Positions 38,815 through 43,715 of a DNA stretch of 64,000 nucleotides are shown piece after piece (within the stretch, counting starts at the first letter, position 1; the number at the start of each line of letters is the position of its first letter). This stretch comes from an uncultured Actinomycetes bacterium (GTDB taxonomy: Bacteria; Actinomycetota; Thermoleophilia; UBA2241), in contig CAVXRL010000008.1 in assembly GCA_963764225.1 (NCBI GenBank), forward strand, positions 126,362 through 190,361, written 5' to 3'. The position numbers and the translations under genes are program-made. The notes under the pieces are model-generated. The model had not been told where the DNA came from. It did no database searches and saw only the letters and a list, made by a program, of their open reading frames with translations.

Positions 38815-38957
38815 CAGTCCCGCGGCCGGCGGCCGCCCCACACGAAGAACAGGGGCAGGAGAAGGAGGGTGAAGCCGAAGAAGCGGCGCGAGACGGCGTA
38901 GACCAGCGCCGCGACGAGCACGGCGACGAGCAGGCTGATCCAGAACCTGGAAGACAT
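38814..38957 (-). CDS. Small (47 aa) two-helix membrane protein, translationally coupled (ATGA) to the downstream gene.
   Basis: MSSRFWISLLVAVLVAALVYAVSRRFFGFTLLLLPLFFVWGG…. Confidence 0.35.
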   Translation of the reverse strand: MSSRFWISLLVAVLVAALVYAVSRRFFGFTLLLLPLFFVWGGRRPRD

Positions 38958-39078
38958 GGGTGTAGCCTGCCGCTCGACCCGAGGGCGCGCAAGCCGCCGC
39001 CGTCACGGTGGCGCGTCCCCGGGCTGCTGTGATTACGTAACACGGCCCGAGAACACCCGCAGCCTGAGGAGGCAGTGC

Positions 39079-40551
39079 GTGAAGCGCAACCTGTTCGCCG
39101 GTCGTCGCCGTAGCGGTGGCCTCAAGTTAGACGTCTTCACCGAGGACGAGATCCAGGACATCCACCTCGCCACCCTCGAGGTCCTCGAGCGCACCGGCGT
39201 CTGGGTGGAGCTCGACGAGGCGCTCGACATCTACAGCGACGGTGGCTGCGTCGTGGACCGGGAGACGCACATCGTGCGCATCCCGCCTCACGTGGTCGAG
39301 GACGCCGTCGCCAGCGCGCCGCCCAAGGTGGTGCTGTGCGGCCGCGACCCCAGGAACGACATCTGCCTCGAGCCGGGACGCGTGGGCTTCAGTAACTTCG
39401 GCGAGGGCATCAAGGTCATCGACCCGACCGACGGCCAGCTCCGGCCCTCCACCAAGGAGGACCTCGGCAACATCGCCCGGCTCGTCGACGCGCTGCCGGA
39501 GGTGGACGTCTTCGAGATGGCCGTCGTCAGCAGCGACAAGCCGCCGGAGTCGTTCAGCCTGCACAACCACGAGGCGGCGATCGTCAACCAGACCAAGCCG
39601 ATCTCCGGCGGAGCGCAGGACGGCGACGCCGTCCACCGCACGGTGGACATGCTCGCCGCCGTCCAAGGGGGCAAGGACGAGGTCAGGCGTCGACCGATGA
39701 TGGTCATGGGTACCTGCCCCGTCAGCCCGCTCAAGCTGGTCAAGGACTTCTGCGAGATCGTGATCGAGTCGGCGCGCGTGGGGCTGCCGAGCTGCGTGCT
39801 CAGCATGGCGATGGCCGGCGGCTCCAGCCCCGTCACGCTCGCCGGCACGCTGGTCACCCACAACGCCGAGGTGCTCGCCGGCATCGTGCTCGGCCAGCTG
39901 ACGGAGCGCGGCAGCAAGCAGCTCTACGGCTCGTCGACCACCGCCATGGACCTGCGGCTGGTGGCGGCGTCGGTGGGCACGCCGGAGTGCGCGCTCATCA
40001 GCGCCGGCGCGGCGCAGCTCGCCAGGCAGTACCGCCTGCCGAGCTACATCGCCGGTGCGTAGGCAGACTCCAAGCTCGGTGACGTGCAGACCGGTCACGA
40101 GAAGACCCTCACGGCCCTCATGGCAGCGTTGGCAGGGACCAACCTGATCTACGGCCTGGGAATGATCGAGTCGGGCGTCACCTTCGATTACGCGCAGCTC
40201 GTCATCGACAACGAGATGGCGCGGATGATCAAGCACGTCGTGGGCGGCGTGCGCGTGGACGACGAGTCGCTGGCGGTGGACGACATCGCCGCGGTGGGGT
40301 CGTTCGGCGACTTCCTCAGCCTCGACGCGACCATGCGCCACATGCGCGACACCTCACAGCCGGAGCTCATCGACCGCCGCGTCCGGGAGGACTGGGAGCG
40401 GCGCGGGGGCACCGACATGTACGCGCGCGCCATGGAGAAGGCGAAGGGCCTGCTGGCCGATCACCGGCCGGAGCCGCTGCCCGACGACGTGCTCAAGCAG
40501 GTCAGGGACATCGTCGACAAGGCGGACCGGGAGCGCGCGCCCCAGGCGTGA
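39079..40551 (+). CDS. mttB: Trimethylamine:corrinoid methyltransferase MttB, with an in-frame amber codon (TAG at 40060-40062) at the pyrrolysine position. The full-length product requires UAG read-through.
   Basis: AGGAGG-N6-GTG start. …LDVFTEDEIQDIHLATLEVLERTGVW…LSMAMAGGSSPVTLAGTLVTHNAEVLAGIVLGQLT…[48 protein letters not shown]…QLVIDNEM… ORFs 38956..40062 and 40084..40551 are in the same frame. The total is ~490 codons with UAG at codon ~328 (compared with Pyl334 in M. barkeri MttB). Confidence 0.85.
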
Positions 40552-40650
40552 GCCGGCGCGCCTCGGGCGCTGTAAGGAGAACACAGACGGGGCGGGCGGC
40601 CGTGAGGGCCGCCCGCCCCGTCCGGCTCACAAGGACGGCTTCTGCCGCGC

Positions 40651-41700: not shown

Positions 41701-41836
41701 TCCCTCCGCAGTGTGGCGGCGCGTACCGGTCATTTCAAGCGCGCCGCACGTTCCCGGCCGGCGTCTCCTGCTACCATTCGCCCTGCGCGCCCCGGAGCCT
41801 GCGGAGTCGCGCGAGGATCCGTGGCGATGAGGGGAG

Positions 41837-43228
41837 ATGGCGGTGGAGGCGAAGATCCCGACCCGGATGGGCGACGGCTTCATGGTCGAGATGACGCGCA
41901 GCGAGCTGCGCGCCGATCTGGAGGAGGCGACGCGGGCGGCGGCGAGCAAGGCCAAGGTGCCGCCGCTCACGCAAGACGAGCTCGACCACCTGCTGGACAT
42001 CTACGCCTCGCGCGCGGCGTTCACCGCAGTCGACATCGGCGACCAGGTGGTGCTCAGCTGCGACGGCGGCGGCAGCAAGATGACCGGGACCGACCTCCTC
42101 GACCTGCTGGAGAGCGAGCAGCGCCTCGGCCAGGACATCCTCGAGCTCTGGCACATCGAGTACAGCTACAAGGCGATCAAGACGATCCTGCCGTTCCAGC
42201 AGCAGGTGATGCAGAACGTGCAGCTGATGTGCACGGCGCCGGTGCAGTACGGGGCGCAGCCCAACCTGGCCTTCTACAGCAAGCCCGACGGCCCCGCGGA
42301 GAACTGGTTCGAGCTGCTGCCGCGCGGGGACATCGCCGGCGCCCGCGCGGCCATCGGCGAGGCCATGGACCACGCCACCAAGGACTTCATCTACGTGGGC
42401 GAGGGCATGCTGGACGCCGGCGCCGACGGCATGGACTTCGACACCACCGGCGGCGCCGGCGACGCCGACTTCTTCAGTACGCTGCGCGCGGTCCGCCACC
42501 TGCGCGAGAAGTACCCGCACGCCGGCATCGAGGTCGGCATGGCCGGCGAGTTCGTCATCGGCGTCCACGGCGAGCTGGAGTGGGAGGGCCGCCGGCTCGC
42601 CGGGCTCTGGCCCAGGGAGCAGCTCGAGGTGTGCCAGGACGCCGGCGCCACGATCTTCGGGCCGGCGGTCAACATCCGCACCGGCAAGAGCTGCGCCTGG
42701 AACGCGGCGTACTCCATCACCGTCACCAAGCCGTGCATGGACGCGGCCCGCATCCCGGTGCACCCCAACGTCGGCGAGGGCGTCGGCGGCGTGCCGGTGA
42801 ACGGCTACCCGCCCGAGGACGCCGCTTCCCGGGCGGCCAGGGCGCACGTCGACATCCTCAAGTGCGACGGGTTGTAGGTGGGCTCGGGTGACTCCAGAGG
42901 CATGGACGTCACCCACGCGCTCGCCGCTGGCATGGGCGGGATGCGCACGGCCGGAGACCTGGTCGCGCGCATGCAGATGTCACGCGGGATGCGCCTCCCC
43001 GAGGCCAAGAAGTACGTCGCGGAGAAGCTGGGCTGCACGGTCAGGGACCTGAGCGACAGCTACGCGATGGAGCAGATCCGCGGCGAGAAGGGTCTGGGAA
43101 GGATCCTCGACCACTCCAACCTGCACCCCGGGGAGCCGAACGCGATGACGGCGAAGTTCCGGATCGCCGAGCTGCTGGACGTGCCGGTCAGCTCGGTGGA
43201 GCGTTTTCGGGAGCTGGCGGGTCTGTGA
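41837..43228 (+). CDS. mtbB: Dimethylamine:corrinoid methyltransferase MtbB, with an in-frame amber codon (TAG at 42875-42877) at the pyrrolysine position.
   Basis: MAVEAKIPTRMGDGFMVEMTRSEL…DFDTTGGAGDADFFSTLRAV…AGIEVGMAGEF…HVDILKCDGL-TAG-VGSGDSRGMDVTHALAAGMGGMRTAGDLVARMQMSRGMRLPEAKKYVAEKLG… ORFs 41837..42877 and 42878..43228 share a frame. The total is 463 codons with UAG at codon 347 (compared with Pyl356 in M. barkeri MtbB). Confidence 0.85.
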
Positions 43229-43715
43229 GAGGCGCGGCGGCCGCCGGCCGCTGCGCCCGCACGAGGATCCACGCCACCGCCGCCGCGGCGATCCCGATGG
43301 GCACCAGCAGCACGCCGACCAGCGTGGTGAGGTACATACCGACGCCGGGGTCGTACCAGCCGATGTGGGAGGCGGCGTCCTGCGCGGCGCCGAAGGCGGC
43401 GATGCCGCACGCCGCGACGAGCACGCCGAGGAGGATCGAGTACCGGCGCGGCCGGGTGACGGCCATCAGCACGCCGGCCGCGACGACCGCCAGCGCGATC
43501 ACCAGGGCGGGGACTCCCCACCTGGTGTCCAGCACCCCGTTGAGCCCGCCGCCCTGCGCGACGCTGAAGTTGACCAGCCCCTTGCCGTCCTCGTTGGCCC
43601 ACGGCAGGAACACCGCGACCAGCAGCAGGCCGCCGCAGACGACGGTCAGCACGGCGTCGCCGATCCAGTCGCGGCGGAGGATACGCGGTTGCCGGAGGCG
43701 GTGTGGTCGCTTCAT
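43188..43715 (-). CDS. Hypothetical polytopic membrane protein.
   Basis: Four predicted TM helices and no motifs. It overlaps the 3' end of mtbB by ~40 nt (convergent). Confidence 0.4.
   Translation of the reverse strand: MKRPHRLRQPRILRRDWIGDAVLTVVCGGLLLVAVFLPWANEDGKGLVNFSVAQGGGLNGVLDTRWGVPALVIALAVVAAGVLMAVTRPRRYSILLGVLVAACGIAAFGAAQDAASHIGWYDPGVGMYLTTLVGVLLVPIGIAAAAVAWILVRAQRPAAAAPLTDPPAPENAPPS

Follow-up and report, generated by a model that had tools for sequence, protein, structure and literature searches.

The archetype of the pyrrolysine (Pyl)-dependent methylamine methyltransferase systems is that of Methanosarcina, with its mttBC/mtbBC and pylTSBCD genes, while Desulfitobacterium hafniense, Acetohalobium arabaticum, Bilophila and Deltaproteobacteria have a bacterial version comprising a split pylSn/pylSc, pylBCD, tRNA-Pyl(CUA) and a Pyl-type mttB. 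Here we describe a related pair of genes, mttB and mtbB, for a trimethylamine (TMA) and a dimethylamine (DMA):corrinoid methyltransferase, in 64 kb of DNA from an uncultured member of the Thermoleophilia (Actinomycetota). This whole stretch, hereafter the window, includes 39 kb of upstream and 21 kb of downstream flanking DNA and has a GC content of about 71% throughout (flat at 0.70–0.73). With Methanosarcina the locus shares the two enzyme families, a UAG at the position of Pyl334 and matches to the Rfam families PYLIS_2 and PYLIS_3. There are also differences: (i) no corrinoid gene adjoins the methyltransferase genes; (ii) the host is a bacterium, with a split PylSn/PylSc; (iii) methyl groups cannot be passed to coenzyme M; and (iv) TAG, which is rare as a stop in Methanosarcina, is a frequent one here (10–19%). 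The bacterial components listed above are all found in this lineage too, and UAG has remained a common stop codon here as in the other bacterial Pyl users. In contrast to those bacteria, the methyltransferase genes are located apart from the pyl and corrinoid genes, in the island that contains the latter the end of a cell-wall amidase gene overlaps with pylSc, and the lineage is an actinomycetotal one of soil, mire and sediment with 70% GC. The non-Pyl members of the MttB superfamily (MtgB, acting on glycine betaine, and others) belong to the same fold family, have no UAG and use quaternary amines as substrates; the window mttB is not one of them, because it does have the UAG and scores above the cut-off of the equivalog model specific for TMA.

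The first-pass annotation of this DNA had regarded such genes as new for a high-GC bacterium, which they are not: genes for the pyrrolysyl-tRNA synthetase (PylRS) have been reported from two Actinobacteria (Guo et al. 2022, PMC9630628), and metagenome-assembled genomes (MAGs) of Actinobacteriota from Stordalen Mire express Pyl-mttB and Pyl-mtbB (Ellenbogen et al. 2023, PMC10805028). The organisms and genes of these papers are probably of the kind described here, and one of our related loci (L035) comes from a 'palsa' MAG; the relevant passages give the genes, not the split-locus arrangement, the breadth, the island structure or the RNA features. New here are the breadth of the system in the Thermoleophilia, its conserved split architecture, the make-up of the island, and the RNA and terminal-TAG observations.

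We consider it highly probable that mttB and mtbB encode functional Pyl-dependent enzymes whose partners are located in a separate pyl island, that this arrangement has been inherited vertically, and that UAG is ambiguous in this organism. The single in-frame UAG of each gene would be decoded by Pyl-tRNA(Pyl, CUA), the tRNA being charged by the split PylSn/PylSc with Pyl supplied by PylBCD. The pyl genes and a cognate corrinoid protein of the MttC/MtbC type would lie at a different chromosomal locus, the 'pyl island', and it would be because of this separation that the methyltransferase locus looks orphaned. UAG would stay an ordinary stop for some 10–20% of the genes, with release factor 1 (RF1) competing with Pyl-tRNA.

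Genes were located in the window by frame analysis based on the GC content of third codon positions (GC3), and the candidate open reading frames (ORFs) with GC3 support were scanned against Pfam over all 64 kb; about a dozen of these ORFs match no Pfam family. In mttB (in-frame TAG at 40060–40062, final stop TGA at 40549–40551) the Pfam MTTB (PF06253) match is split at the TAG into profile positions 30–336 (E = 3e-55) and 341–498 (E = 3e-33), and in mtbB (start ATG at 41837, in-frame TAG at 42875–42877, final stop TGA at 43226–43228) Dimeth_Pyl (PF09505) is split in the same way into 4–353 and 355–462; thus, the TAGs occupy the pyrrolysine positions of both families. Once read through, the products score 693.7 bits on TIGR02369 and 381.1 bits on TIGR02368, above the NCBIfam equivalog cut-offs of 525 and 369.1 bits. 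MttB aligns over almost its full length with that of Methanosarcina barkeri (7xcm; 402 bits, about half of the aligned residues being identical by eye), and its codon 328, the TAG, falls on residue 334, which is Pyl334 of that structure; the glycine betaine methyltransferases in the PDB, 2qne and 9yce, match at 230 bits. That both genes are genuinely of the Pyl type, as the first-pass annotation had proposed, is thus borne out. Its start of mttB has to be moved: the ATG at 38956 lies upstream of GAGGAGG, which resembles a ribosome-binding site, and the likely start is the GTG at 39079, which yields the N-terminal part of 327 amino acids that the relatives share. Judging by its family, MttB would methylate its cognate corrinoid protein from TMA.

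The TAGs are strictly conserved. In a one-genome-per-species collection we have identified 58 loci with an MtbB 79–97% identical to that of the window, nearly all of them titled uncultured Thermoleophilia or Actinomycetota MAGs and many coming from Danish soil. The TAG is kept in 33 of 33 relatives of mttB and in 55 of 55 of mtbB, and is always followed by a tail of fixed length (161 and 116 codons, respectively). The mtbB tail is under purifying selection, with a median dN/dS of about 0.18 against 0.26 in the N-terminal part; the amino-acid identity of the tails is 77–95% among relatives more than 75% identical overall, and 63–67% in the more divergent mttB group. Downstream of the TAG, GC3 is 0.91–0.95 in both genes. 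The N-terminal part of MtbB has hundreds of close relatives, all of them called as products of about 344–346 amino acids, that is, ending at the TAG. A look-up of the window copy by exact identity gave no match, so that under this gene call its genome is absent from the collection used.

UAG is also a genuine terminator in this organism. The first-pass annotation had listed at least six window genes ending in TAG, and we have found seven: a META lipoprotein (10424), an L,D-transpeptidase (LDT; 25564), a hexapeptide transferase (34622), a Mo-oxidoreductase (37267), an S-adenosylmethionine (SAM) methyltransferase (47633), Qor (47630) and purA (63675), about 10–12% of the genes in the window. When the stops of ordinary genes were tabulated with a strict gene caller for the window and 59 related loci, TGA accounted for 79%, TAG for 19% and TAA for 2%. 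Past the seven genuine TAGs, the next in-frame stop is 14 to 286 codons away. Tandem backup stops were considered and rejected, since a second stop within 10 codons is present in 7% of the TAG-ended against 12% of the TGA-ended genes. Since TAG makes up 10–19% of the genuine stops and is not backed up by a further one, the decoding of UAG must be ambiguous, so that, as had been argued, read-through must be restricted by expression, by context or by both. In 33 of 53 relatives (among L003–L057) mtbB itself ends in TAG, with the next stop 8–189 codons further on (the window copy ends in TGA), and therefore one and the same mRNA bears a UAG that is read through and a UAG that should terminate. 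In these relatives the terminal TAG is preceded by Gly-Leu codons, like the internal Pyl-UAG. The stops of the convergent SAM methyltransferase and Qor genes share a palindromic CTAG (47630–47633); if these stops were read through, the two reading frames would be extended by 191 and 232 codons, respectively. In Methanosarcina acetivorans UAG has the dual meaning of stop and Pyl, and pyl expression is tuned to demand (PMC12626013); in A. arabaticum pyl expression depends on TMA (PMC11467909). Here too, the ambiguity would presumably be tolerable through tuned pyl expression, and conserved features of the mRNA 3' of the UAGs may bias the outcome.

Such features are present in both genes. The PYLIS_3 and PYLIS_2 matches (Table 1) owe their scores largely to the conservation of the coding sequence, and several of the consensus pairs of these families are not formed here. 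The 106 nt that follow the mtbB UAG fold with −57.6 kcal/mol (z = −3.2) and include two hairpins. The first shows one-sided changes only (for example GC to GU) and keeps a rare GGT codon in a gene with a GC3 of 0.98. The second has three compensatory pairs at third codon positions (GC 22/CG 19; CG 24/GC 9/UA 2/UG 2; GC 29/UA 4/UG 4/CG 1), counts that come from related sequences, so that shared ancestry inflates them and the number of independent events may be small. The covariation score of the mtbB structure is 0.103, against 0.006–0.025 in slid registers and with 0 of 500 shuffles reaching it. In mttB, the 35 codons past the UAG have a synonymous entropy of 0.30 versus 0.62 elsewhere, within the lowest 2% of the stretches compared, and two small invariant hairpins built with rare codons follow the UAG; a stable PYLIS fold was ruled out there by z = +1.1. 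These features give moderate hints of putative cis-elements of the kind already catalogued as PYLIS_2 and PYLIS_3.

A bolder proposal, which would add to the explanation preferred here, is that decoding is programmed by context, PYLIS-like elements being the main device of Pyl insertion and the genuine TAGs lacking them. The covarying synonymous-site pairs of one mtbB hairpin, the invariant second one with its retained rare codon, the stability of the mtbB fold, the suppressed synonymous variation past the mttB UAG and the coexistence of both UAG meanings on the mtbB mRNA of 33 of the 53 relatives would all fit it, whereas the unformed consensus pairs, the lack of a stable fold in mttB, the inflation of the covariation by ancestry and the finding that Pyl insertion in Methanosarcina, where amber is ambiguous, does not require any PYLIS element (PMC12626013), do not; moreover, the conservation could stem from other constraints on the mRNA. 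We regard programmed decoding as a tentative and rather unlikely extension.

The cognate partners, of which the first-pass annotation had seen none near the two genes, are present in the relatives at a separate locus. PylS searches with the D. hafniense and Methanosarcina mazei proteins as queries gave only Firmicutes and Methanosarcina among the matches listed. A PylS profile search of 1.84 billion representative proteins (50% representatives), from which high-GC sequences were picked by composition, returned several PylSc sequences rich in Ala, Arg, Gly and Pro. The PylSc query P0279 gave at least 120 clusters at 63–78% identity, including entries named 'pyrrolysine--tRNA(Pyl) ligase large subunit [Thermoleophilia bacterium]'. 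On contig_19728 (1,137,818 bp) PylSc P0531 lies at about 658 kb and a syntenic mttB/mtbB locus, L023, at about 390 kb, mtbB and pylSc being about 267 kb apart on the one contig; PylSc P0447 is encoded on JBAZPK010000196, another contig of the assembly that contains the syntenic mtbB locus L018. The complete island comprises pylB-pylC-pylD, a tRNA-Pyl(cta) called by ARAGORN, a Germane-domain gene, a pylSn of 108 amino acids, a radical-SAM gene, a gene for a corrinoid protein of 210 amino acids, and pylSc with an Amidase_3 gene whose end it overlaps. PylB, PylC, PylD, PylS_Nterm, PylS_Cterm and the corrinoid protein (pyl_corrinoid, TIGR02370) all exceed the NCBIfam cut-offs, and at least 12 high-GC metagenome contigs from JGI contain the same island. 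The genome from which the window comes would be expected to hold it as well.

Some further observations concern this island. Its radical-SAM gene (292 amino acids; for example L064, 12266–13144) is always divergent from the corrinoid gene in the high-GC version, with 69–92% identity, and also occurs in L070, L086–L088, L091, L096, L097, L103, L113, L114, L117 and L129; it matches no curated family above cut-off, and a role in cofactor or corrinoid maturation is possible. The start of pylSc lies inside the last codons of the N-acetylmuramoyl-L-alanine amidase (Amidase_3) gene in L061 (10001–10004) and likewise in L062, L064 and L067, an overlap which suggests that the Pyl synthetase may be co-transcribed and translationally coupled with a cell-wall enzyme. 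Neither ARAGORN nor Rfam gave a tRNA-Pyl next to pylSc in L061–L063, where the intergenic alignment corresponds to the 3' end of the corrinoid gene. The high-GC contig of L128 encodes an MtmB-family protein of 460 amino acids (2654–4036) without internal TAG, beside several paralogues of mttB, mtbB and the corrinoid gene.

In the window, by contrast to the island, no partner was found. The first-pass annotation had noted their absence within 20 kb on either side, and our scans extend it to the whole 64 kb: there is no Pfam match to the B12-binding, URO-D, pterin-binding, RamA/RACo, PylS or PylBCD families among the GC3-supported ORFs, no tRNA by ARAGORN, and no DxHxxG...SxL...GG motif in any frame. 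With PylS, PylBCD, PylSn and the corrinoid protein as queries, tblastn gave no match in the window or the 58 mtbB loci, and in none of the latter do the 10 kb around mtbB contain a pyl, tRNA-Pyl or corrinoid gene. Since neither the window nor these 10-kb flanks encode a B12-binding protein, the arrangement is not that of a conventional mtt/mtb operon.

Low-GC metagenome contigs (L131, L135 and L139) have a compact mttB-mtbB-corrinoid-pylSc-pylBCD-pylSn arrangement. That the window, too, belongs to an ordinary locus, with a conventional mttC/mtbC and pylTSBCD cluster just past its edges, has some support: a related high-GC contig, L077, has mttB, mtbB, a corrinoid gene and a DAO gene in a row, the first three in one operon, and in L061, on the contig that holds L023, a second mtbB and an mttB fragment (11137–12830) abut pylSc. 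Against it stand the 39 and 21 kb of flanking DNA that were covered, the distance of pylSc in the syntenic L023 and the 58 mtbB loci with no partner nearby, so that we think it very unlikely.

The split arrangement is in all likelihood the vertically inherited state of the lineage. In the nearest relative, L009, the DNA is 87% identical across 16 kb. The order Mo-oxidoreductase, rubredoxin, membrane protein, mttB, (secreted protein), mtbB, and then membrane protein, lipoprotein, DAO, methyltransferase and Qor is conserved, about 11 flanking genes being collinear in some 30–40 Thermoleophilia MAG species. The first-pass annotation had envisaged a recently acquired, partly integrated system, to be recognised by a deviating GC3, but the GC and GC3 of mttB and mtbB are native, that is, indistinguishable from those of the flanking genes. 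Recent capture of just the two methyltransferase genes, partially integrated or non-functional, could account for the lack of partners in the whole 64 kb and for the unrelated gene between mttB and mtbB, and Guo et al. (PMC9630628) take the bacterial Pyl system as a whole to have spread by horizontal transfer; it is nevertheless extremely improbable in view of the conserved flanks, of the purifying selection on TAG and tail, of the native composition and of the pyl genes that relatives carry on the same contig or in the same assembly. Hardly any credence can be given to the idea that the UAGs are true stops in pseudogenes, or in genes for truncated or split products without pyrrolysine, since in spite of the normal use of TAG as a terminator, of the in-frame GTG codons after both TAGs (40084 and 42878) and of the lack of pyl genes in the window, the mttB TAG coincides precisely with the catalytic Pyl residue, all 88 gene copies keep the TAG, none having a sense codon in its place or a frameshifted tail, the lineage has the pyl set, and the GTG after the mtbB TAG encodes the Val (or Ile) that follows Pyl in archaeal MtbB. 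Taken together, the conservation of TAG and tail, the mtbB dN/dS, the synteny and the native GC exclude both pseudogenes and recent partial transfer.

Several points do weigh against the functional, Pyl-dependent system that we prefer: (i) For this organism the case is built on sequence analysis. (ii) MtbB passes its equivalog model narrowly, at 381 versus 369 bits. (iii) As the window contains neither pyl genes nor tRNA-Pyl nor a corrinoid protein, the link to them is made through relatives with 84–87% MtbB identity. (iv) L061 has pylSc but no pylBCD within 10 kb. (v) The covariation of the mtbB hairpin is subject to the qualification given above. (vi) Neither a methyltransferase from methylcorrinoid to tetrahydrofolate or another acceptor (MT2) nor an activator of the RamA type was detected in the window, around the island or at the 58 mtbB loci; the URO-D, pterin-binding and RACo families are absent from the scanned flanks of L077, L113, L128 and L129, which gave only transporter, DAO, MtmB-like, polyamine, pentose-phosphate and ATPase genes. 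With neither an MT2 nor an activator, the downstream half of the pathway is hypothetical; the methyl groups would presumably pass to tetrahydrofolate.

Pyl-dependent demethylation of TMA and DMA is thus not confined to methanogens, Firmicutes and Deltaproteobacteria, and appears entrenched in a widespread high-GC class of soil bacteria (at least 58 species-level MAGs). This bears on the turnover of methylamines and nitrogen in soils and mires as well as on the competition with methylotrophic methanogens. Annotation pipelines will miss or mis-score the pathway, because gene callers split the genes and the helper genes are distant. With TAG at about 19% of stops, the lineage is a natural test bed for bacterial life with an ambiguous UAG, supplies candidate cis-elements and mRNAs carrying both a Pyl-UAG and a terminal UAG, and is a source of high-GC PylRS/tRNA-Pyl pairs.

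Table 1. Features of the mttB/mtbB locus, in window coordinates. TM, transmembrane segment; FAD, flavin adenine dinucleotide.
Feature	Position	Strand	Basis and remarks
Mo-oxidoreductase (TAG end at 37267) and rubredoxin	36425..37491	+	Pfam Oxidored_molyb, Rubredoxin
Single-TM anchored protein, divergent from mttB	37579..39006, start uncertain	-	One hydrophobic segment; no Pfam family
mttB, Pyl-type trimethylamine:corrinoid methyltransferase	39079..40551	+	490 codons; UAG = codon 328; Pfam, TIGR02369, 7xcm alignment
Rfam PYLIS_3 match after mttB UAG	40060..40159	+	69.6 bits (gathering 38); starts exactly at TAG
Secreted protein with three repeats, between mttB and mtbB	40651..41700, start approximate	-	Signal-peptide-like N-terminus; no Pfam family
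mtbB, Pyl-type dimethylamine:corrinoid methyltransferase	41837..43228	+	463 codons; UAG = codon 347; Pfam, TIGR02368
Rfam PYLIS_2 match after mtbB UAG	42875..42974	+	62 bits (gathering 36); starts exactly at TAG
mtbB hairpin 1	42887..42913	+	Begins 10 nt past UAG; paired in 41-42 of 42 distinct relatives
mtbB hairpin 2 (second helix of PYLIS_2)	42943..42970	+	Compensatory changes, three third-codon-position pairs
Four-TM membrane protein, convergent with mtbB	43188..43715	-	Translation and hydropathy
DAO-family FAD oxidoreductase	45532..46908	-	Pfam DAO, E = 5e-52
SAM methyltransferase (+) and Qor (-)	47016..48565	convergent	Pfam; TAG stops overlap in CTAG

The surroundings of the two genes (Table 1) are as the first-pass annotation had described them: mttB and mtbB are not adjacent, a minus-strand gene for a secreted repeat protein lying between them, and they are flanked by two membrane proteins, both on the minus strand. 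Homologues of the secreted protein were found at 49 loci; the subclade of the window has probably gained its gene by insertion, because mttB and mtbB are direct neighbours in L001, L018, L033 and L035. The position of the single-TM protein is conserved in 39 loci and the four-TM protein is kept in 36, while upstream the Mo-oxidoreductase is syntenic in 32 loci and the rubredoxin in 37. A gene for a small lipoprotein (about 43866–44249, plus strand) downstream of mtbB is also conserved around the locus and matches no Pfam family; the lipoprotein and the secreted protein have a common repeat ending ...Y(T/V)YTPG..(S/A)YTL.VHL.

The best-conserved neighbour of mtbB is the DAO gene, with 63–94% identity across 43 loci. 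The top NCBIfam match of its product is TIGR03329, under the cut-off of that model. As there is no mtmB nearby, the DAO-family enzyme may be the amine oxidase of the pathway, acting on the methylamine product. In L077 a DAO gene (6136–7599) follows mttB, mtbB and the corrinoid gene in an operon-like row; it is 31% identical to that of the window, and at this identity a shared function is only a lead.

Combining these elements, one may picture the Thermoleophilia of soil and sediment as a large, vertically inherited and barely described Pyl lineage with three distinctive features: (i) methyltransferases uncoupled from a pyl island with corrinoid and radical-SAM genes, in which pylSc would be translationally coupled to an amidase; (ii) context-dependent decoding, in which covarying hairpins would make Pyl insertion more likely at the internal UAG of mtbB and a second UAG on that mRNA would act as the stop; and (iii) a conserved DAO-family oxidase, not MtmB, that would take the methylamine product. 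As a whole this picture is speculative and we hold it to be doubtful; if true, it would amount to a hybrid methylamine pathway, possibly an oxygen-tolerant one.

Outside the locus, the window contains frame-split genes at 4232–5792, 60950–61928, 11191–12832 and 23965–25518: the N and C domains of an FGGY kinase are encoded by ORFs that overlap, an ABC ATPase is divided into two ORFs, and the reading frame changes within a sulfatase gene and within a DUF1015 gene. This suggests indel errors in a long-read MAG assembly, or pseudogenes; mttB and mtbB are not of this kind, since their frame is unchanged across the TAG. Finally, an ORF for a PurE-like AIR carboxylase ends in TGA and is followed without a gap, in the same frame, by a RidA/L-PSP ORF (57623–58546), and a second AIRC-domain ORF is present at 27030–27989.

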